Source: Microbotryum violaceum
Taxonomy: Eukaryota
Length of the DNA stretch: 64,000 nucleotides
Direction of reading: 5' to 3'
Assembly (NCBI GenBank): GCA_001244265.2
Contig: LN717261.1
Coordinates: 930,001 to 994,000, forward strand
This document shows, one piece after another, positions 9,648-63,700 of this stretch; the stretch's first letter is position 1, and each line of letters opens with the position of its first letter. The notes beneath the pieces are model-generated. The model was not told the origin of the DNA. It did not search any database and saw only the letters and a program-made list of their open reading frames with translations. A program made the translations under genes and the position numbers.

Positions 9648-16983
<7,336 letters not shown>

Positions 16984-17458: not shown

Positions 17459-22570
<5,112 letters not shown>

Positions 22571-23119: not shown

Positions 23120-29287
<6,168 letters not shown>

Positions 29288-32200
29288 TCGGCAACCCGCG
29301 ATTGACGCTTGAGGACCAGGACACAGCGGAGCCGGCAATGTAGAAGACGAAACCCATGGTGAGACCGATGTGTCGACGCAGGCACCCAGTTGGCATCGGA
29401 GTAACCTACCACGCCCGTGATGTCCGTCTTACACGAGTGTAGAGAAGCTCGTCGCGATAAAGTGGCTCGGAGGTAGCGTAGGACGTGCTTGACGGCAATC
29501 CAATGGCGCTGACCCGGGTTGTTGGCGAAGCGGGCCAGGTAAGATACGGCGAAGGCGATGTCGGGGCGAGTGCCAAGCGAGATGTAGAGGAGCGAGCCGA
29601 TTGCCTGTAGATACCACGACCTGATCTGTTCCGTGCCTTGGCCCGGAATGGCGGTGAGCGAAAGACCGGGGGTCATCGGGATGGTAGCGCCGCGAGTCGT
29701 AGTGTCGAAGTGGAACCGAGCGAGCACGTCCATGATGTACCGTTCCTGGCATAGGGCGATAGAGCCGTCGTTGAGACGCCTGATCTGGATGCCGAGGATG
29801 TACTCGGCCGGTCCAAGGCGTTTGACACTGTAACGTTGTTCCAGGCCCGAGATGACGCGTTCGATTTCGGCCAGGTCCGGGCTGATCATCAGAAGGTCGT
29901 CGACGTACAGTGCGATGTAGTGTGGGCTTTGACGATTGTCGAGCCGAGAGTAGACGCAGTGATCGGTGCCCGTCGCCGTGTACCCGAGAGCACGAAGCGA
30001 AGCATCGATGTGTCGATTCCAGATGCGGCCGGCCTGTTTGAGCCCGTAGATGGAACGGCGCAGTCGAAGCACCTTGTCGCTGGGAAGGTCGAAGCCGCGT
30101 GGTGCCGTCATCCAGATGTCGTGATTGAGGTCGCCGTGAAGATAGGCTTTGTCAATGTCCGCTTGGTGTACATGCAGGCCGTTGGCAGCCGCGAGCGCGA
30201 GGAGTGAGCGTATCGAAGAGAAGCGGGCGACGGGTGCGAACGTCTCGTTGAAGTCAATGCCGTCCCGTTGCCGATTGCCCTGCGCTACCAAATGTGCCTT
30301 GTGGCCAGTGATTTCGCCAAGTGCGTTCCGTTTCGTTTTCCAGACGAACTTGGACGTGACGATGGTCGCGCCCATGGGTGCCGTAGAGCGGTCCTCGATG
30401 GTGAAAACCTTGAAGTCGTCGCGCATGGAATTGAACTCATCATCGGCGGCCTTGGCCCACACTTCACGTTTGTCGCTCGACATTGCCTCGCGCCAGGTCT
30501 GTGGGTCGCTTGTGATGGACTTGACTGGCTGGATGGCCTCAGCGTCAGAGGTGTCGTCGTCGGTCGCGATGAAAGCGCGGTGGTGTCGGGTGAGGAAATC
30601 GATTTCGTCCGGCGATTCGTCACGAGAGTGGCGCCCAATGAGGTCGAGTTTGTCGGGCGACTCCTCAGCCGATGCGGGCTCGCGGAACGTGCTGAAGTCG
30701 GGGCGGTGCACGTCTGGTGGGTTGAGGCGAACCTGGGGCTGTGAGCTGATGAGGTCGAGAGGATCGGCGGAATATTCAGAGTCGGTTGGCAAGGCCGAAG
30801 GTGACCACAATGCGGCCAAAGACGGTGAGGGCGCGGACGATGGTGCAGCCGACGGGGACGAGGCCGGTTCAGGAGACAGTGACGAGGACGGCGCAGGCGA
30901 CGGTGACGCGGGCGATTCGGCATCTGTGGGATTAAGTAAGGATCCGCCAGTGTACCCTGGGGCCACGTCAACGGCGCTCATGGAAGAATCATCAAGAGGG
31001 GATGAGACGTCCATGTGCGCCGACCTTACTAGTGGGGTCCATGATTCGACGGTGGTTTGAGGGTCGGCAAAGGGAGCGCTGGCGAAGTGCGTGTCATCGT
31101 CTGGCTCGGCGGAGTTGCCACATAAACCGGGGAATTCAGTGTCGAGGAAGGTGGCATTTCTGCCCAGGGTGACCTTCTTTGTTGTAGTGTCGTAGAAGCG
31201 GAAGGCTTTGGAAGCCAAGTCGTAGCCGGTGAACAGAACGCGAACCGCTTTCGGGTCGAGTTTAGAGCAAAGTTCGGGCGCGACCGTGAGCCAAGCCGCA
31301 CAGCCGAACGGGTGAAGCGCGGAGGCTGTGGTGCGTCCGCCTTGCCAGACCGAGGTCGGTGTTGCCTTGTCGAGAGCCGAGTGTTGAACCAGGTTCTTGC
31401 AGTAAACGAAGTAAGCCGCAGCCTCCTCCCAGAATGTCTTGGGTAGATGGGCGTCCGCCAGAAGGGCAAGAATACCTTCAACAATGGACCGATTGACCCG
31501 CTCCGCCCGACCGTTTTGTTGAGGCATGCGAGGGATAGAGTATTGTCGACGCGTACCTCGCACCTTGCAGAACTCCGTGAATGCTCTCGAGCAATACTCG
31601 CCACCATTGTCAGTTTGGAGGACCTTCAGTATTGCACCTGTCTCAAGCTCGACCTCGGCAAGCCAAGTCTTGAACACGCTGAAGACTTCGCTTTTATGTC
31701 CGATTGCGTAGGCCCACAGTTTGCGCGAGTAGTCGTCGAGGAACGTGACCAGGTATCGTTTGCCGGTCAAGGAACGCTCCGGGAGGGAAAGTACATCACT
31801 GTGTACGAGGCCGAGTCTCTCGGAGGAGTGCAAATCCGAATCGGGAAAAGGAAGACGATGGCCCTTGGCGCTGAGGCAAGCATTGCAGACAAACTTCTCT
31901 ACCTCTTCGTCACTATATCCGGCCCCGAGACCCTCCAGCAAACCAGCGGCAACCATCTTCTGTATGGACGACGGTGCGAGATGGCCGAGGCAGCGGTGGA
32001 GAGTCAGCAGGGGCACGGAAGACTGTGAACGAGAGAGGAGAGCAAGGTGCTGACATTTGGAATGATCAGCGTCGAGCAAGTCGAGTCCCTCGTTGAGCCT
32101 CGTGCCTTCAGCGATGTTGTTGCCGTCTTTGTCGATGTCAATGCATGTTTCGTGAAGGCAACACGGACGTCGTTGGTGTCGCAAAGTCGAGAGACCGAGA

Positions 32201-42100: not shown

Positions 42101-44807
42101 CGCACCCCCTGCCCCTGACCAAGGCTCCCCTGCTTGTGAGCTCCCTGACCCGGAATCACCTGCATCAAGCGCCTCTGACCAAGGTAGCTCTGACTCGGCC
42201 ATCTCCACGCCTTGTCCTTCCCGCGCCCCGTGGCCTCCCGTGCGTTGCCAGCGCCACCCTCACCCGCTCGGTCCGACTCCCCGGACCCGATCGATCTCCT
42301 GCCACGCCCACGCGATGTTGCTTTGCTATGCCAGGCGCAGGAGTTTCCCGACGACGTGGATGACGCACTCCACTCACCCTCTGCCGTGGCCTACCTTGCC
42401 TCTGGCGCTGCCGCCCTCATTGAGAGCTCGCCCGCCGACCCTGCGGAACTGATTGCCCCCGCTCGCGACCCACCTCACTGGCGAGCGGCCATGGCCACTC
42501 CTCAAGCGGATGAATGGCGTCTTGCGGCCCGCGACGAGTTTGACTCACTCTTGCGAGATTTTTCGGCGTTCACACGATTGACGAGTCCCTTGTCCCAGCA
42601 GACGCCAAAGTCCTGGCTCCCGCTTTGTCTTCCGCACCAAACGCGACCAGCATGGCCAAGTCAAGTCCTACAAGGGCCGTCTCGTTGCTCGTGGTGACTC
42701 CCAACGCTCTGGCATTGACTTTGACGAGACCTTTGCACCCGTGGCCAAATTCACCTCCATCCGCGCACTCCTGGCTCTTGCTGCTGCTCATGGGTACCAC
42801 GTCCACCAGGCCGACATCGACAAAGCCTACCTGCACGACAAACTCGACGCACCCCTGTACAATTGTGTGCCTGATGGCATCTACATGCCAGGCAAGGTCC
42901 TCCAACTGCATCGGTCCCTCTATGGTTTGCGCCAGGCCGGTCGCATCTGGATATTCGATCAACTCTACTACGTCAGCAATGTAGTTATAGCCAAGAGTGA
43001 TGAATCATTTCAACATACCTATTCGATCAACTCTACTACGTCAGCAATGTAGTTATAGCCAAGAGTGATGAATAGGAAGCTAACAGTGAATGAGCCGCGC
43101 GCCCCAATTTCTCAGCCAGTGAGCCTCAGGGCTGACCCAATAGGCCAGGCTCGTTCCGCGCGCCTAAGTCCGGAGCCATTTCGCCCGGCTCGCTCCGCGC
43201 GCCTAAGTCCCGACCTGATGCGCCCGGCTCGCTCCGCGCGCCTAAGTCCCGAGCCGAGGCGCCAGGCTCGCTCCGCGCGCATAGGTCCGTGCGCGATGCG
43301 CCCGGCTCGCTCCGCGCGCCTAAGTCCTGGACCGAGCGGAGAGTGCATTCCTCACACTGGAACGACGAGATTGACTCTGCCTTGTCCGCACTCGGCTACG
43401 TCGCCACCGAATCCGACCACTGCGTCTACGTCAGGACAACGGGTGATGTGCACCACTACATTGCGCTCTATGTCGACGACCTGCTCATGATCAGCCCCTC
43501 TCTCCCTGAGATTGAGCGTACCCTTCAGGGTCTTGAGCAGCGCTATGGTGTCAAACGGCTCGGTGAGGCAGAATACGTCCTCGGCATCCAGATCCGGCGC
43601 TCTCCAGACGGTTCCATCTCTCTGAGTCAGGAACAATACCTCAAGGACGTCCTTGCCCGATTTGGAATGTCCGATGCCCATCCCGTTGCCACGCCCATGC
43701 AGCCCGATCTCCGCCTCGAAGTCGAGCTGCAGCCCACCCCATTCCCGGATCGCACTCGGTACCTGCAGGCCATTGGTTCCCTTATGTACGCGTCCACTGG
43801 TACTCGGCCCGACCTGGCTTACACCGTCGGTTACTTGGCTCGCTTCTCTCACTCACCTTCCGCTGCTGCTTGGGGAGCTGTCAAACACGCCTTCCGTTAC
43901 CTCGCTGGCACTCTTTCTCACGGCTTACGCTACGCTCGTGGAATCCGGCACCGCTCTTGGGCTACTCCGACTGCAACTGGGGTGCATGCGTCCTCTCTTC
44001 CAAGTCGACCATGGGTTACACTTTCGTCTATGCAGGTGCTGCCGTCTCATGGTCCTCCCGGCTTCAATCGCGCGTTGCTGACTCCACTTGTGACGCCGAG
44101 TACCTCGCACTGTCACACGCTGGTAAGGAGGCAATCTTTCTGTGTCAGCTCTTTGGTGAGCTTGGCCTTTCGTCTTCAAAGCCCGTCCTCATCTACGGCA
44201 ACAACCAAGGCGCCAATGCTCTCACCAAGAATCCGGTATTTCATGCTCGGACTCGGCACATCCGCCTGCGCGAACACTTCGTCCGGATATGGTTTCCATG
44301 GGCGACATTGTCGTCCAGTACATCAACACTGGTGAGATGACAGCGGACATCTTCACCAAAGCATTGTCACGCGACCTCTTTGCTTGGCACCGCGGTCGAC
44401 TCGGTATCTGTGCTCCCTGATACTCGAAGTAGGGGGGGTGTGAGATCAAATATCTCCTTCATGTCCTTCTTGTATCTTGTACCTACCTCAACATCCTCCT
44501 CTCTTCGTTTGATCACTTTTGGCCTACTTTTCACCACCTTAGCTCTCCCACTCTGGGCCTGGTCTCTGCACCTGGGCCAGGTCCGTGCGCCTGACTTTGG
44601 CTGGGCTGACTTGGCCCAGCCAAATGGCCCCACTCTGGTTTCTCTCCTGCTCAAGCAACTTCTTGGTCTGGTCTCCCTCGGTCCTTCGATCAGAGACTTA
44701 CCACCGCTTGAGCAGGTGTGTAAAAAGCAACTTCTTGGTCTGGTCTCCCTCGGTCCTTCGATCAGAGACTTACCACCGCTTGAGCAGGTGTGCGTGACAA
44801 CATCACA
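39170..44807 (+). mobile_element. Full-length family A element (LTRs 39170-39608 and 44439-44807) carrying a solo D LTR
   Basis: Matching TSD GGTAC; PBS GGTTATTAGCCC at 39609-39620; gag ATG 39686; pol stop about 44420; PPT 44431-44438. Confidence 0.92.
42952..43356 (-). repeat. Solo family D LTR (two modules)
   Basis: Matching TSD CTGGA inside family A RT. Confidence 0.93.
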
Positions 44808-45844: not shown

Positions 45845-48800
45845 GGTTATTCGCCCATCGACCTACCGCTGGCATGGACACGTCGTCGCCCCTAACGACG
45901 GGTGCCCACCCAACAATCCCCGCCGAACAGCTCGCCGCACTTACGTCGCTGCTGTCGGGTCTCACCACTGCCACATCCGCCACGTCGTCCGGCACCTCTC
46001 GCCCGCGCCTTTCCCAAGCACGCACGCTTGGATGGGCCCAAGATGTTTGCGAGCTGGACACGCCAGCTTCGCCTCTGCCTCGCGGACGACATCCGCTCAT
46101 ACGTCCTCGACGGGATTGTGCCCGCCAACTGGACACCTTCGCACCGCTCTGCCCGCGATGTCGTGGCACGTGAGCTCCTAGCGAACTCGATCGACTCAGC
46201 TGACGTCTCGGCAGTCCTCGACCAAATCCCTACCGCCGACCTCACAGCGCCCAAAATGTACTCGACACTGAAATCGCGGTATGCTCCTGACGACGCCACT
46301 CGCACGCTCGAGCTCTTCTCCCGACTGTGGAGCTTCCGGCCCATGCCTGGCACCGTTGGCGAATTCAACGGCTGGATCATGGAGTTCAAAGCTATTGCGC
46401 AAGAAATCATCGATACGAAGACCACGATCAACGATGTTCTCGCCACACTCCTCCTCGCCATCGCTCACCCGTCCCTCGAGAGTTTCAAGGCGTCGTTCAC
46501 CGATGAACAGCGCACTCAACGATCTCTCCCTGCCATCGATTCGCTCGCCGACCGCATGCGTGTTCAACTCCGGTCCACCAACGTCCCCAGCACCCAATCG
46601 GCCCTTCTTGCCTCGTCGTCGTCACGTCCTACCCGTCCCAAGTGTCTCGCCTGTCGCAGCCCTTCGCACCGTGTGGCGGAGTGCCCTGTGAGAGCGACAC
46701 ACCCGCCGCCAGGACCCTGTCGCTCCTGCAAGCAGAATCACTGGTCTTTTGACTGCAAAAAGGCTCTCGGGAACAGCAAAAGGCCGACACGGCGAACTCG
46801 ACCGCCGACCCGCAACACCATGTGGGATGTATCGCCACCGGTCTTCTCGCTCGTCGCCGCCAGCTTTGCACCAACTCTTTTGTCGTTGACTCGGGGGCCA
46901 CCTCGCACATGGTCTCGGACAAGTCGCTGTTCACGACCTATCGCCACATCGCTCCCACAAAGATTGGAGGCATTGCAGGGGGCATCAACGCCATCGGAAC
47001 GGGAAACATCGCCTTCGTTGCCGCCTCGGGCCATCCGATCACGCTCACTGGCGTGCTGCACACTCCCGGCCTGTTCGTCAATCTCCTCTCGGTCTCTCGA
47101 CTTTGCGACTGTGAGGAATCCACTCTCCGCTCGGCTCAGGACTTAGGCGCGCGGAGCGAACCGGGCGCGGACTTAGGCGCGCGGAGCGAGCCGGGCGCCC
47201 CGGCCCAGGACTTAGGCGCACAGAGCGAGGCAGGGACTTAGGCGCGCGGAGCGAGCCTGGGCCATTGGCTCAGCCCCCAGGCTCGCTGGCTGTGGACTTG
47301 GCGCGCGCGGCTCTTTTGTTGTTAGCTTCCTATTCATCACTCTTGGCTATAACTACACCGCTGACGTAGTAGAGTTGATTGAATAGGTATGTTGAAATGG
47401 ATTCATCACTCTTGGCTATAACTACACCGCTGACGTAGTAGAGTTGATCGAATAGGTTATAAGCCCACGAGCTACCAGCCCCGCCGCTTGCGTTTTTTTC
47501 GCTCGAGCCCAGCCACTCGAGCCGCACACGTCCATCGCACCATCACATCATGGACAGCTCTCCCGCCTCGCCTTTGGCCCCAGGGATCCCAGCTCCCCTG
47601 AATCTTCGATCGGCGAACAAATCGCCACTCTACAGGCCCAGCTTGCCGCTCTGCAGGCCTTGCAACCCGCCGCCGCCGCCGCCGCCGCCGCCGCAACCCC
47701 GGCCGTCACCGCCGTGCCGGGAACGCCGCCACCGCATCCAAGGTCGTGTTTCCCAAGCACGCTCGTCTGGACGGCCCCAAGTCGTTCACCAACTGGTTGC
47801 GCCAACTCCGTCTTGCGCTTCCCAACCAGGTTCGCGGTTACGTTCTCGACGGTGTCATGCCCCCGACCTGGACCGCCGACCAGCTTGCCGCCCGTGACGA
47901 CGCCGCCCGGGAAATCATTGTTGGCTCGATCGACTCCGCCGACGTATCGGCCACCCTCGACGCCATCCCCAGCGACGACCTGTCGGCACCGCGCATCTTT
48001 GCCGCTCTCAAGGCTCGTTTTGCACCGGACGACGCTACACGCACTCTCGAGTTGTTCGCTCGCCTTTGGGACTTCAGGAAGATGCCTGCCTCCGTCGAGG
48101 CCTACGACACTTGGCTACGCGAGTACATGTCGATTGCTCAGGAAATACGCGACGCCAAAACATCGCTCAACGACGTGCTCGCCACCCACGTGCTCGCCAT
48201 GGTCCCGTCTTGCCTCGACAGCTTCCGACTCACGTTCACGGACGAGCAGCGAAACCGACGCGACCTTCCCGAACTCACGACGCTTACGGACCGCATTCGC
48301 ATCCAGCTTCGTTCGGCAGGACTCTCGCCCTCGCATTCGACCATGCTTGCCACCAGCTCCCCTGCCCCGCCTGCCGCGCTCCCGGTCACCGCCTGCGCGA
48401 CTGCACTTCACGTGCGAAGCACCCGCCCACCGGCCCCTTCCGCCGATGCCACAAGACAGGTCACTGGACACTTGACTGCAAGAACCGGGGTGAACAGGCA
48501 CGTCGCAGCGACGACACTCAGGACGACACGTCTTCCTCCGCGGCTTTGCAACCGAACGTCGGCTATTTCGCCTCCTGCCTGTTCGCTCGTCGCCAACTCC
48601 CGACTGACGCCTTTGTAGTCGATTCGGGCGCCACGACACACATGGTCGCCGACCGATCTATGTTCACGACTTATCGTCAGACGGCACACACCAAGATCGG
48701 CGGCATCGCGGGTGGCATCACGGCTATCGGCATGGGGGACGTGGCATTCGTCGCCAAGACTGGACACCCGATCACACTCCGTGGTGTTCTCCACACGCCT

Positions 48801-49991
48801 GGCCTCCACGTCAACCTCCTCTCTGTCGCTCGCCTCTGCGACACCGACCGTGTTCGCCTCGCCTTCACCAGCGATGGCATCGACATCGCCAAGGACGGCC
48901 AGGCCATCGCTCACGGTACCAGGGTCAACGATGGTCTTTACCTTTTGGACGCGGATCACACCAAGTGTCAGCATCTTGCCTTTCTCTCACGCTCTGAGTC
49001 CCCCGTGCCCCTGCTTACCCTACACCGCTGCCTCGGCCATCTTGCCCCATCCTCTATACAGAAGATGATTGCTGCAGGTTTGCTGGACGGGTTTGGGGCC
49101 GGGTACAGTGACAAAGACGTAGAAGAGTTTGTTTGCAATGCTTGCCTTGGTTCCAAAGGCCACCGTCTCCCTTTTCCTGACTCTGAGTCGCATTCCCCAA
49201 GAGACTTGGCCTCGTGCACAGCGATGTCCTGTCGTTTCCCACTCCGTCCTTGACCGGGAAGCGCTACCTTGTCACATTCCTCGACGACCACTCTCGCAAA
49301 CTCTGGGCATATGCGATCGATCACAAGAGCGACGTCTTCCCGATCTTCCAGACTTGGCTCGCCGAAGTGGAGTTAGAGACGAACGCGCGTTTGAGAATCC
49401 TTCGAACCGACAATGGCGGGGAGTATCGATCAAACGCATTTACGGAGTTCTGCAAGTCCAAGGGCATACGTCGTCAATATTCTATCCCTTACACGCCTCA
49501 GCAAAACGGTCGCGCCGAACGTGTCAACCTCTCCATCGTCGAGGGCGTCCTCGCTCTCCTTGCGGACGCCCGCCTGCCGGCCACCTTTTGGGATGAAGCG
49601 GCTGCGTATTTCGTTTATTGCAAAAACAGATGCTCACACTCAGCTTTGGCCAAACAGACTCCAGAATTCGTTTGGAACGGCCAACGCACCACCGCCACCG
49701 CCCTCCACCCGTTCGGCTGCACAGCCTGGCTCACAGTCGCCCCGGACCGTCGCAGCAAGCTCGACCCCAAGGCCGCGCGCGTGATCTTCACAGGTTATGA
49801 CCTCGCCTCCAAAGCTTTCCGTTTTTTTGACCATTCCATCAATAAGATTGTGCTTGGTCGCAATGCCACCTTCCTCGACAACGACTTCCCCGGCCTCCCA
49901 GTCACCACGGCCGTCGATGCGGACGACACCGACCGTCAGTTCGTCGTTCCCGCCGACACGCCCGCCCTGCCGTCAAGACGAGGACCCCACT

Positions 49992-50098
49992 AGTAAGGTC
50001 GGCGCACATGGACGTCTCATCCTCCCTTGATGATTCTGCCATGAGCGCCGTTGACGTGGCCCCAGGGTACACTGGCGGATCCTTACTTAATTCTACAG
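49992..50098 (+). other. Conserved structured element in the IN-RT linker (copies near 11621-11730, 16315-16421, 19786-19894, 26523-26630, 30922-31031, 52517-52624, 62517-62624)
   Basis: Nested inverted repeats AGTAAGG/CCTTACT, GGCGCACATGG/CCATGAGCGCC, TCATC/GATGA, CCAG/CTGG; near-invariant in families B and D. Confidence 0.7.
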
Positions 50099-50186
50099 AC
50101 ACTCGCTCTTCGTCGTCTCCATCGCTTTCCCCATTTTCGTCGCCGGCCACGTCCTCGGCCAGGGATCCGTCCCTCGACGACTCGGA

Positions 50187-55567
<5,381 letters not shown>

Positions 55568-55772
55568 TCGGATGACCCGCTTGATCTCCTCAGCTCCAAC
55601 ACCGCGGTTCGCCTCAACTTGATGGACTTGCATCGATCCGACGACGACACACCAGAGACGCAGGCACCCGCCGTTGACCCCGTTGGGCAGCCCTCCGATG
55701 ACGACTCCCCGATGAGATCGATTTCCTCTCTCGTCACCACCGCGCTTTCATTGCCACAGACGACGACGACCC

Positions 55773-56256
55773 TATGAAGCGCACAACTGCTCAAGCGGTG
55801 GTGAGTCTCTGATCAACGGACCAAGGAGACCAGACCAATGAAGTTGCTTTGCACACACCTGCTCAGATGCTACAGTAAGTTACCCTGGCTATCAAAGTGA
55901 GAGAGGTACTAGGAAGTGTAGTGCTCACCTGCTCAAGCGGTGGTGAGTCTCTGATCAACGGACCAAGGAGACCAGACCAATGAAGTTGCTTGAGCAGGAG
56001 AGAGAGAAGCGCGGAGCCAGTTGGCTGGGGTAGTGCGCAACCAGGTCCGTGCCCCAGTGTTAAGCGCACGGACCCAGCCTGAAGATAGAAGGAGCCAGGC
56101 AGAGCATGGCTTGGTCGTGCGCTTGATGCAGGTGCACAGACCCAGCCAGAGATGGGAGAGCAGGGTGAAGGGAAAGGCCAAAAATCACAGAAAGAATAAG
56201 GCAGAGAAAGGGTGAGACGGTGTGAGAAGGAAATACAAAGAGTTGTAACTCTTACA
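55773..56256 (-). repeat. Solo LTR of a family C relative (long form), TG...TA
   Basis: Matching TSD GACCC; TGTAAGAGTTAC...GCTTCATA. Confidence 0.92.
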
Positions 56257-56986
56257 GACCCCACCCTCGACGCCATCGAGCCCGTCAAATCGATCACTAG
56301 CGACCCCCAAACCTGGCGCGAAGCAATGTCCAGCGACGAGCACAACATCTGGGCTGAGGCTGCCGCCACCGAGTTCACCGCCATGCGCGACGACTTCGAG
56401 GTGTTCACCATCGAGCCTCGCTCATCCGTACCGCCGGGCGCCACCATCGTCACCTCCAAATTCGTCTGGAAGACCAAGCGCAACGCCAGCGGTGAAGTCA
56501 CGGGCGGAAGGCGCGTCTTGTAGCGCAGGGTAACCGACAGCGCAACGGCATCGACTTCTCAGAAACCTTCGCACCCGTCGCCCGCTTCTCCTCCATTCGC
56601 TGCCTCTTGGCTCTTGCCGCTGCCAACGGCTACCACGTTCATCAGGCCGACATCGACAAGGCTTACCTCCACGGCGAGCTCGATCATGATATCTGGATGA
56701 CGACACCACAAGGTTTCGACTTCCCGAGCGATAAGGTTCTCCGGCTGCGACGTTCAATCTACGGTCTCAAGCAGGCCGGTCGCATCTGGAATCGTCACAT
56801 TGACACATCGCTCAGGAATCTCGGGTACAAGGCAACAGGCACTGATCACTGCATTTACTCTCGCATTGACGATCAGCAGCGGCCTCACTATATCGCCTTG
56901 TATGTCGACGACCTCCTCATTGTCAGTCCCCACCTCGACGAGATCGAACGTGTCATCTGCGGCCTTGAACAGCGATACAGCGTTAA

Positions 56987-57514
<528 letters not shown>

Positions 57515-58237
57515 TAGCGGACTCCACCACTGATGCCGAGTACCTGGCCTTGTCGCACGCGGGTAAGGAAGCGATCTACCTTACCCAACTCCTCTCCGAG
57601 CTCCACGTTTCACCAATCGCTGCAGCTCACATCTTCACCGACAACGAAGCCGCGGCCGCCGTCGCTCACGACCCCGTTCGCACCTCCGGCACCCGGCACA
57701 TTCGCCTCCGCGAACATTTTGTCCGTGACATGGTCAATCGAGGTGACATCTCTCTCTCACACGTTGGCACAGCGGACATGGTTGCGGACGTATTCACCAA
57801 AGCGCTAGGCCCCAAGATTTTTGGTACACATTGCTTTGCTCTAGGCCTCCGGACGCGACATCCACGGCTCAAGTCTACCTCGCGTTCGCGTGGGGGGGGG
57901 TGTGAGGAATCCACTCTCCGCTCGGCTCAGGACTTAGGCGCGCGGAGCGAACCGGGCGTGGACTTAGGCGCGCGGAGCGTGCCGGGCGCCCCGGCCCAGG
58001 ACTTAGGCGCACAGAGCGAGGCAGGGACTTAGGCGCGCGGAGCGAGCCTGGGCCATTGGCTCAGCCCCCAGGCTCGCTGGCTGTGGACTTGGCGCGCGCG
58101 GCTCTTTTGTTGTTAGCTTCCTATTCATCACTCTTGGCTATAACTACACCGCTGACGTAGTAGAGTTGATCGAATAGGTATGTTGAAATGATTCATCACT
58201 CTTGGCTATAACTACACCGCTGACATAGTAGAGTTGA

Positions 58238-58656
<419 letters not shown>

Positions 58657-60700: not shown

Positions 60701-63700
60701 CCGCAACCATGTCTGCTGTGCCAACGTGTGAGAGAGAGATATCACCTCGATTGACCATGTCACGGACAAAATGCTCGCGGAGGCGAATGTGCCGGGTGCC
60801 GGAGGTGCGAACGGGGTCGTGAGCGACGGCGGCCGCGGCCTTGTTGTCGGTGAAGATGTGAGCTGCAGCGATTGGTGAAACGTGGAGCTCGGAGAGGAGT
60901 TGGGTAAGGTAGATCGCTTCCTTACCCGCGTGCGACAAGGCCAGGTACTCGGCATCAGTGGTGGAATCCGCTACCCGAGTCTGACGCTTCGACGACCAAG
61001 AGATGGCGGCGCCTGCCAAGTAAAATATGTAGCCCATCGTTGAGATGGATGTGTCGACGCAGGCGCCCCAGTTTGCATCAGAATAACCAACCACACCCGT
61101 GACTTTTGCTGGGCCGCGGGCATAGAGAAGCTCATCGTGGTACGTGGCGCAAAGGTAGCGAAGGACGTGTTTGACGGCAATCCAATGGCGGCGGCCGGGT
61201 TGTTGGCGAACCGGGACAGGTACGAGACGGCGAAGGCAATGTCGGGTCGAGTGCCAAGGGAGATGTAAAGGAGGGAGCCGATGGCCTGTAGGTACCACGT
61301 ACGAATGCGCTCCGTTCCTTGACCCGGAATTGCCGTGAGCGAGAGGCCGGGCGTCATTGGCACCGTAGTGCCGCGTGTCGTGGTGTCAAAGTGGAAACGG
61401 GCTAGCACGTCCATGATGTAGCGCTCCTGGGATAGAGCAATGGAGCCGTCGTCCAGGCGGCGGATTTGGATTCCGAGGATGTACTCCGCCGGGCCGAGTC
61501 GTTTAATGCCGTATCGCTGTTCAAGGCCGCAGATGACACATTCGATCTCGTCGAGGTGGGGACTGACAATGAGGAGGTTGTCGACATACAAGGCGATATA
61601 GTGAGGCCGCTGCTGATCGTCAATGCGAGAGTAAATGCAGTGATCAGTGCCTGTTGCCTTGTACCGAGATTCCTGAGCGATGTGTCAATGTGACGATTCC
61701 AGATGCGACCGGCCTGCTTGAGACCGTAGATTGAACGTCGCAGCCGGAGAACCTTATCGCTCGGGAAGTCGAAACCTCGTGGTGTCGTCATCCAGATATC
61801 ATGATCGAGCTCGCCGTGGAGGTAAGCCTTGTCGATGTCGGCCTGATGAACGTGGTAGCCGTTGGCAGCGGCAAGAGCCAAGAGGCAGCGAATGGAGGAG
61901 AAGCGGGCGACGGGTGCGAAGGTTTCTGAGAAGTCGATGCCGTTTCGCTGTCGGTTACCCTGCGCTACAAGACGTGCCTTCCGCCCCGTGACTTCACCGC
62001 TGGCGTTGCGCTTGGTCTTCCAGACGAATTTGGAGGTGACGATGGTGGCGCCCGGCGGTACGGATGAGCGAGGCTCGATGGTGAACACCTTGAAGTCGTC
62101 GCGCATGGCGGTGAACTCGGCGGCGGCAGCCTCAACCCAGATGTTGTGCTCGTTGCTGGACATTGCTTCGCGCCAGGTTTGGGGGTCGCTAGTGATCAAT
62201 TTGACGGGCTCGATGGCGTCGAGGGTGGGGTCGTCGTCGTCTGTGGCGATGAAAGCGCGGTGGTGACGAGAGAGGAAATTGATCTCATCGGGGGAGTCGT
62301 CATCGGAGGGCTGCCCAACGGGGTCAACGGCTGGTGCCCGCGTCCCTGGTGTGTCGTCGTCGGATCGATGCACGTCCATCAGGTTGAGGCGAACCGCGGT
62401 GTTGGAGCTGAGGAGATCAAGCGGGTCATCCGAGTCGTTGAGGGACGGATCCCTGGCCGAGGACGTGGCCGGCGACGAAAATGGGGAAAGCGATGGAGAC
62501 GACGAAGAGCGAGTGTCTGTAGAATTAAGTAAGGATCCGCCAGTGTACCCTGGGGCCACATCAACGGCGCTCATGGCAGAATCATCAAGGGAGGATGAGA
62601 CGTCCATGTGCGCCGACCTTACTAGTGGGGTCCTCGTCTTGACGGCAGGGCGGGCGTGTCGGCGGGAACGACGAACTGACGGTCGGTGTCGTCCGCATCG
62701 ACGGGCGTGGTGACTGGCAGGCCGGGGAAGTCGTTGTCGAGGAAGGTGGCATTGCGACCAAGCACAATCTTATTGATGGAATGGTCAAAAAAACGGAAAG
62801 CTTTGGAGGCGAGGTCGTAACCTGTGAAGATCACGCGCGCGGCCTTGGGGTCGAGCTTGCTGCGAAGGTCCGGGGCGACCGTGAGCCAGGCTGTGCAGCC
62901 GAACGGGTGGAGGGCGGTGGTGGTGGTGCGTTGGCCGTTCCAAACGAATTCTGGAGTCTGTTTGGCCAAAGCTGAGTGTGGGCATCTGTTTTTGCAATAA
63001 ACGAAATACGCAGCCGCTTCATCCCAAAAGGTGGCCGGCAGACGGGCGTCCGCAAGGAGAGCGAGGACGCCCTCGACAATGGAGAGGTTGACACGTTCGG
63101 TGCGACCGTTTTGCTGAGGCGTGTAAGGGATAGAATATTGACGACGTATGCCCTTGGACTTGCAGAACTCCGTAAATGCGTTTGATTGATACTCCCCGCC
63201 ATTGTCGGTTCGAAGGATTCTCAAACGCGCGTTCGTCTCTAACTCCACTTCGGCGAGCCAAGTCTGGAAGATCGGGAAGATGTTGCTCTTGTGATCGATC
63301 GCATATGCCCAGAGTTTGCGAGAGTGGTCGTCGAGGAATGTGACAAGGTAGCGCTTCCCGGTCAAGGACGGAGTGGGAAACGACAGGACATCGCTGTGCA
63401 CGAGGCCAAGTCTCTCGGGGGAATGCGACTCAGAGTCAGGAAAAGGGAGACGGTGGCCTTTGGAACCAAGGCAAGCATTGCAAACAAACTCTTCCACGTC
63501 TTTGTCACTGTACCCGGCCCCAAACCCGTCCAGCAAACCTGCAGCAATCATCTTCTGTATAGAGGATGGGGCAAGATGGCCGAGGCAGCGGTGTAGGGTA
63601 AGCAGGGGCACGGGGGACTCAGAGCGTGGGAGAAAGGCAAGATGCTGACACTTGGTGTGATCCGCGTCCAAAAGGTAAAGACCATCGTTGACCCTGGTAC

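Follow-up and report, generated by a model that had tools for sequence, protein, structure and literature searches.

A block of about 116 nt in the IN-RT linker of Ty1/copia elements is likely a cis element that acts at the level of its nucleotides, as judged from patterns of sequence conservation. The block was found at positions 49982-50098 of the 64-kb window, by which we mean the whole stretch of DNA that was analyzed, and its hosts would be families of Ty1/copia elements that recombine with one another in Microbotryum. Selection probably acts on the nucleotides of the block, and we propose that it would be a cis-acting nucleic-acid element held by purifying selection inside a linker that is translated and fast-evolving. 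As for its function, we favor, tentatively and by analogy with the BARE1 element of barley, the reading that the block may be a selected RNA element that serves as a weak, stem-masked, optional intron of 106 nt.

Copies of the block and the elements that carry them

A search with a 25-nt probe that allowed up to three mismatches recovered the block at 49982-50098 and seven further copies, eight in the 64-kb window where 0.00 were expected, and neither nhmmer nor blastn found a block copy across the window beyond these eight. Pfam annotation placed all eight between the SH3-like integrase end and the RVT_2 domain of Ty1/copia elements, i.e., in the IN-RT linker. Five copies belong to family B (by anchor and strand, 11728-, 16315+, 19893-, 26628-, and 31030-) and three to family D, which is divided into D1 (49992+ and 62623-, 98% alike) and D2 (52623-, about 88% alike). 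The reported copy, c49992p of D1, covers 49965-50098 on the plus strand, its near-invariant core of ~116 nt being preceded, from about 49967, by a 5' lead in which conservation is partial. Among the family B copies, c11728m (11622-11738, minus strand), c16315p (16305-16421, plus strand), and c19893m (19787-19903, minus strand) are matches to the 25-nt probe, c26628m (26524-26637, minus strand, ends approximate) is decayed and bears three 1-nt deletions, and c31030m (30924-31040, minus strand) lies inside an uninterrupted frame at 29203-32184. The other copies of family D are c52623m of D2 (52518-52633, minus strand), with one 1-nt deletion in hairpin 1 of the fold described below, and c62623m of D1 (62517-62633, minus strand), again a probe match. 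An independent mobile insert of the MITE or introner kind was rejected as the origin of the block, given that all eight copies in the 64 kb occupy the homologous copia site and that no duplication flanks them. Block peptides compared with metagenomes gave 154 pattern matches, of which 0 were confirmed.

Nested LTR retrotransposons make up the window. The reported copy is housed in a complete D1 element on the plus strand at 47110-58244 (345-nt LTRs at 47110-47454 and 57901-58244; 5-bp target duplication GCGAC), and a D2 element on the minus strand at 50187-55567 (target duplication TCGGA) is nested in the D1 linker, where it splits D1 84 nt after the block. The target duplications, 5 bp each, are intact in both the nested and the outer element. 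A central polypurine tract (cPPT) was dismissed as an identity for the block, which holds no purine run; the real 3' PPT of the D1 element is a run of nine Gs at 57892-57900, adjoining the LTR. The string TGGCGGATCC in the block was also considered as a primer-binding site (PBS) and discarded, the real PBS of the D element (47455-47472) being different.

Several further features of these elements were observed. The D-element PBS (47455-47472, and 55146-55163 on the minus strand) follows an LTR ending in TA, not CA, and its complement resembles the anticodon-arm region of a tRNA, not a tRNA 3' end, which suggests, by analogy with copia, that an internal fragment of a tRNA serves as the primer. 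This PBS has no family B copy in the window, and the window contains 0 tRNA genes. The LTRs at 47140-47260, 43064-43396, 50298-50630, and 55314-55568 carry two to five tandem copies of a GC-rich unit of ~39 nt (GGACTTAGGCGCGCGGAGCGAGCC...) and a duplicated unit of ~57 nt near the LTR end, the copy number varying between LTRs. Two family B copies at 11416-13536 and 14508-16627 stand head to head as an inverted repeat of ~1-2 kb, 97-99% identical, with 971 nt between the arms; as both are missing their 5' ends, a rearrangement rather than two insertions is suggested.

Conservation of the block between families B and D

Families B and D were compared by sliding 100-nt identity, with c31030m representing B and c62623m representing D. 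Identity peaked at 96/100 in the block and reached at most 84/100 elsewhere, catalytic cores included, falling to about 50/100 just upstream of the block and 15-16/100 just downstream (15-40% across the downstream side); no second peak was found in the LTR, 5'UTR, gag, PR, or IN. When all 15 B-D pairs were counted, mismatches numbered 5-8 among the 113-117 positions of the block and 114-128 among 346-350 in the 350 nt upstream. Fourfold-degenerate sites, which were compared only where the amino acids are identical, differ between B and D at 0/22 in the block, as against 92/149 in IN, 19/29 in the linker, and 47/89 in RT, and the chance of 0/22 at the pooled IN+RT rate is ~4e-9 by our own arithmetic. 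These comparisons bear out the original prediction that the block is near-invariant in a setting of diverged IN synonymous sites and unalignable flanks. B and D have no common LTR or 5'UTR, their 5'UTRs being unalignable, and are hardly similar in gag. What few B-D differences the block contains are mostly amino-acid changing (Pro/Ser, Ser/Ala, Pro/Ser).

The same slow pace is seen between D1 and D2, which differ at 3-4/116 positions in the block vs 43-44/352 (12%) upstream. At the variable sites of the block, D1 and D2 agree with each other against B, which fits a topology of ((D1,D2),B), i.e., vertical descent. Among young B copies, the block differs at 0-4/114-117 positions and the flanks at 0-13/345-350; since the block decays like its flanks in these copies, it is no mutational cold spot.

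An intron-like layout

The putative optional intron occupies 49993-50098 on the plus strand, with a GTAAGG donor at 49993-49998 and an ACAG acceptor ending at 50098, for a length of 106 nt (3 x 35 + 1). GT (49993-49994) and AG (50097-50098) are present in 8/8 copies, a branch-like CTTAC places its A (50085) 12 nt ahead of the AG, and a pyrimidine-rich tail (TTAATTCYAC) lies at 50088-50096 between CTTAC and AG, so the GTAAGG...CTTAC...ACAG arrangement is present as it was first described. The 3' edge of conservation is sharp and falls exactly at the AG; the 5' edge lies about 10-28 nt ahead of the donor. CTTAC is the other arm of the stem in which the donor sits, and the branch motif is thus not independent of the donor and adds little. 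Judged by the general fungal consensus, the GTAAGG donor is weak at -1 (an A) and beyond +5 (a G at +6).

Removal of 106 nt, which is not a multiple of three, would put RT out of frame, and frame analysis upheld the original prediction on this point. The product would be Gag-PR-IN followed by an out-of-frame tail of 45 aa in D and roughly 210 aa in c31030m of B. A weak test for the post-removal frame in database proteins, with the B tail sought among proteins of 361-1150 aa and the D tail among those of 80-2000 aa, found none, and the segment is kept in 8/8 copies of the window. Contigs of runs X1, X2, X10, and X3 over 29203-32184 yielded four joints, all in X3 and none across the block, and have no bearing on expression or splicing. 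In the same region, where the element is on the minus strand, one X3 contig skips 95 nt at 31959-32055 in the pre-integrase region, with GT..AG ends on the sense strand of the element; the short side of this joint has only 27 letters and the kind of run is uncertain, and the skip may be a deletion variant or an assembly artefact.

A decayed linker offers a further observation. In c11728m, a 1-nt deletion further down the linker (11365-11669) opens an alternative frame from the putative acceptor into RT, such that IN and RT would be joined in frame if the 106 nt were removed. We judged this fusion to be a coincidence of decay because the Ser/Pro-rich frame holds DPLDL, which is common to family D. 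An intron on the antisense strand (GTAAGG...CTTACTAG) was rejected, its branch motif being only 3 nt from the AG and the antisense strand folding with a z of -0.72.

Predicted RNA structure

The minimum free energy (MFE) fold is three-way, with a closing stem and two hairpins, and recurs in B and D; it reproduces the multi-way junction closed by AGTAAGG/CCTTACT that had been proposed from inspection. On the plus strand, the 5' arm AGTAAGG (49992-49998) contains the donor-like GTAAG and the 3' arm CCTTACT (50081-50087) the branch-like CTTAC, and the seven pairs between them are invariant in 8/8 copies. Hairpin 1 (CGGCGC.CATGG...CCATG.GCGCCG, 50000-50050, plus strand) has an inner TCATC/GATGA stem, a variable pyrimidine loop, and an ATG at 50008-50010, and gave self-antisense matches in nhmmer; hairpin 2 (CCCCAG...CTGG.GG, 50060-50078, plus strand) is likewise part of the MFE fold.

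Such a fold invites a reading in which the block is a structured RNA that is never spliced, a three-way junction serving dimerization or packaging, the binding of a host protein (e.g., for export), or a pausing of RT that promotes template switching, with the donor-like GTAAG being incidental and kept harmless by its pairing. We regard this reading as rather unlikely, though it would leave the same nucleotide-level conservation as a masked intron and accounts for where variation falls on a fold whose closing stem and two hairpins are shared by B and D. The fixed B-D differences (alignment columns 42, 44, 57, and 113) and the common Ser/Thr variant of the relatives are at unpaired positions. 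The fixed differences are distributed over the hairpin loop, one end of a stem, and the 3' tail, in agreement with the original prediction, which had named a hairpin loop and a stem end. The letters of the single-stranded junction and loops are invariant too, as they are in elements that contact protein or RNA.

Tests of the fold itself did not lend it support. No predicted pair carries a double change (0/30), and with 25/30 pairs never varying, variation is too scant for a covariation test; folding z was -1.45 and -2.17, with 20/200 and 7/200 shuffles folding as well. A search of Rfam 15, named in the original prediction as a check, returned three matches with E of 3.4-8.1, all far below gathering scores, and hence no family. 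Of the prediction of a cis-acting RNA element, the nucleotide-level conservation, the fold, and the intron-like signals held up; covariation, exceptional folding stability, and an Rfam family did not emerge. A packaging signal recognized by Gag is at odds with two families whose 5'UTRs are unalignable and whose gag is very different, and to our knowledge there is no Ty1/copia cis element at the IN-RT junction. The lack of a shared LTR or 5'UTR and the scant similarity in gag also make a signal read by the host, whether by the spliceosome or by a host RNA-binding protein, more plausible than one read by the element's own Gag. In favor of a never-spliced element, the mosaic relatives described next break at the block, and recombination breakpoints in HIV-1 likewise lie in constant regions (PMC1636437, in the part available to us).

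Relatives and recombination at the block

Thirty-four relatives were found in the protein database, from Microbotryum wherever a source was named, and 31/34 carry rve and RVT_2 with the block peptide between the two domains. When 35 polyproteins were aligned, 34 of which came from other Microbotryum genomes, the block peptide was the part that varied least. Three of the relatives (P0018, P0020, and P0021; 1527-1595 aa) carry gag-pre-integrase, rve, and RVT_2 in one protein, and residues 1-1576 of P0020 map on the D1 element. In a related family (P0040, P0041, and P0120), only the first third of the block peptide is kept. Among the 150 listed relatives, 22 were aligned, comprising one with the whole block, three with the first third, two broken models, and 16 more distant ones with none, from which it follows that the block is not needed by all relatives.

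In relatives P0018-P0029, IN (98% to the D reference), the pre-block, and RT are all of D type, but the linker is B-like from the end of the block onward. In other genomes, B-type proteins end in an RNase H that resembles that of D. The three to four variable sites of the peptide also cut across families: the B-type P0003-P0006 have a D-like block and the D-type P0010-P0017 share a Pro with B. As judged from these protein sequences, crossovers between families occur at the block. P0001-P0034, which derive from other genomes, are modular mosaics, and family labels based on a single domain consequently disagree with those from another domain.

Frequent recombination of this kind raises the prospect that the block is a functionless island of homology, whose likeness is maintained, or was recently created, when co-packaged RNAs of the two families undergo template switching or gene conversion, and the P0018-P0029 mosaics, the B-type proteins with a D-like RNase H end, and the peptide states that cross families are what such exchange would leave behind. 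We nonetheless think this explanation rather unlikely. A patch confined to the block would require both switches to fall within 116 nt, between flanks that are 50% identical upstream and 15-40% downstream, and a larger patch would have brought the flanks along, yet the flanks differ. Exchange can spread variants; it can neither create an island nor halt mutation at 22 silent sites. The block is slow to change between D1 and D2 as well. Homology-driven exchange should be easiest in the conserved IN and RT cores, yet the block is found where the protein is under the least constraint. The suggestion in the original prediction that gene conversion between families might account for the conservation finds partial backing: the relatives are mosaic with a junction at the block, but a block-only patch needs homology that the flanks do not have.

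Reading frame and codon use

In c31030m, IN, block, linker, and RT are read in a single frame of 993 aa, and because these parts share one frame in intact copies, the block is translated, contrary to the notion that it is an untranslated spacer. The stop (TAG/TAA) first noticed at the start of the block in family D is attributed, by comparison with intact relatives, to an indel that the D copies of the window carry near 49966, ~25 nt upstream. Programmed frameshifting and readthrough were rejected, given the one frame of c31030m, the occurrence of rve and RVT_2 in one protein in 31/34 relatives, and the indel behind the D stop, as was termination-reinitiation at the TAG-TAA...ATG of the D copies, whose intact relatives are in frame. 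A recoding element, one of the roles first proposed, is thus unlikely, since intact copies need no frame change. An overlapping ORF was also discarded: both other sense frames have tandem stops in the block, and an antisense ORF spans it in one copy only.

Compared with intact relatives, the two D1 copies have the same frame break (about 49966 and 62649), located in a C-rich run ~25 nt ahead of the block. D2, too, is out of frame at this place, where it carries 35 additional nt that include a 17-nt tandem duplication. This pre-block region is a hot spot for indels.

Translation of the block opens a further alternative, that the peptide itself is constrained, e.g., as a protease cleavage site between IN and RT or as a docking motif, with codons fixed for translation. 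This is very improbable: although the block is translated in the intact copy, 31/34 database matches carry rve and RVT_2, and the peptide is the most invariant in the alignment, a protein constraint should leave silent sites free, yet 0/22 fourfold sites differ and the changes that did occur alter amino acids, while the catalytic cores of IN and RT still differ at 53-62% of their fourfold sites. The codons of the block are moreover among the rarest of the ORF, and the rare CTA, GTA, AGG, and TTA coincide with the putative splice signals; block GC3 is 0.53 vs 0.67 for the ORF, a value as low being seen in only 37/956 windows. The fourfold sites, the mostly amino-acid-changing differences, and the rare codons with low GC3 together place the constraint on nucleotides, not on the peptide.

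A proposed role in splicing and module exchange

Of the roles offered in the original prediction (intron, packaging, dimerization, recoding), recoding is made unlikely by intact copies that are in frame, and the signals of an intron are present. Under the masked-intron reading that we favor, the GTAAGG donor would be paired with the CTTAC branch region in a 7-bp stem that limits splicing. Most transcripts would retain the segment and double as genomic RNA and as the message that encodes the complete Gag-PR-IN-RT-RH polyprotein, and a fraction would be spliced, putting RT-RH out of frame and yielding mRNA for Gag-PR-IN only, so that splicing would act as a dosage device of the BARE1 kind. Three constraints would overlap in the block, namely the reading frame, the stems, and the signals read by the host, and their overlap could explain why almost no position is free. 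The block would also be the place where template switching joins modules of different families, as it is the only long stretch of identity between them. A more specific version is possible but doubtful: that the block is an "exonic intron" of fungal copia elements whose donor is paired to its own branch region, that folding decides whether it is retained or spliced, and that the module is in addition a fixed joint at which IN and RT are swapped.

Other points count against the masked intron. The interior of the block is frozen throughout, although its signals are all that an intron requires, and truncation after IN rather than after Gag departs from the known logic of dosage.

If a structure-masked intron is the correct reading, splicing-based dosage in Ty1/copia elements would extend from plants and flies to basidiomycete fungi, at a new position where RT rather than all of Pol is titrated, and the block would provide a compact natural case of an intron gated by pairing between its own donor and branch. 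If the block is instead an RNA module that is not spliced, the IN-RT junction, from which we know of no cis element in the superfamily, would have gained one. In both cases, the block marks a point of module exchange in abundant Microbotryum families, which matters for their classification and for the dating of bursts on non-recombining mating-type chromosomes. Should it be no more than a recombination island, the finding would be an ordinary one.

Comparison with known systems

In HIV-1, a stem encloses the major splice donor and restrains it, which allows genomic RNA to persist unspliced; in the block, the partner strand would differ in being the intron's own branch region. Removal of the intron of Ogre joins ORFs, whereas removal in the block breaks the frame, and the two differ in superfamily and host kingdom as well. 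Ogre, a Ty3/gypsy element of legumes, is cited in the part of PMC3735527 that was available as having its intron within the coding region of an LTR retrotransposon. In the portions of the literature available to us, no intron or RNA element is described from the IN-RT junction of copia elements in fungi.

HIV-1 recombination breakpoints between subtypes cluster in constant regions, according to the accessible part of PMC1636437, and the block resembles them in that crossovers between diverged, co-packaged RNAs fall in stretches that stay alike. The clustering of retroviral breakpoints is a consequence of conservation, not a function.

Parallels also come from Ty1/copia elements without a gag-pol frameshift, among them Arabidopsis EVD with its shGAG RNA, in which splicing sets the ratio of products (PMC5580714, seen in part), and from Drosophila copia, in which alternative splicing removes nearly all of pol (as cited in the available part of PMC3735527). 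EVD-type introns center on the protease region, and EVD splicing is coupled to premature termination (PMC5580714, same portion), whereas the segment in the block is tiny and lies at the IN-RT junction. The present elements have the single gag-pol ORF without frameshift that goes with dosage by splicing in Ty1/copia; their candidate segment lies between the SH3-like domain of integrase and RVT_2 instead of at the gag/PR boundary, where splicing would leave Gag alone.

The nearest counterpart is BARE1 of barley, a Copia element with a single ORF, from which a 104-nt GT-AG segment is spliced in a small share of transcripts, shifting the frame (PMC3735527, in the part available). The intron of BARE1 sits where PR begins and its removal leaves Gag only, and the segment in the block lies after IN and would leave Gag-PR-IN; splicing in BARE1 was demonstrated by RT-PCR, while the block is known from its sequence. 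Conservation of interior nucleotides and a stem between donor and branch, both features of the block, are not mentioned for BARE1 in the portion of that paper available to us. What the two share, on the same partial text, is a small GT...AG segment (104 vs 106 nt) within a single ORF, which is translated when retained and whose removal truncates, or in the block would truncate, the polyprotein.
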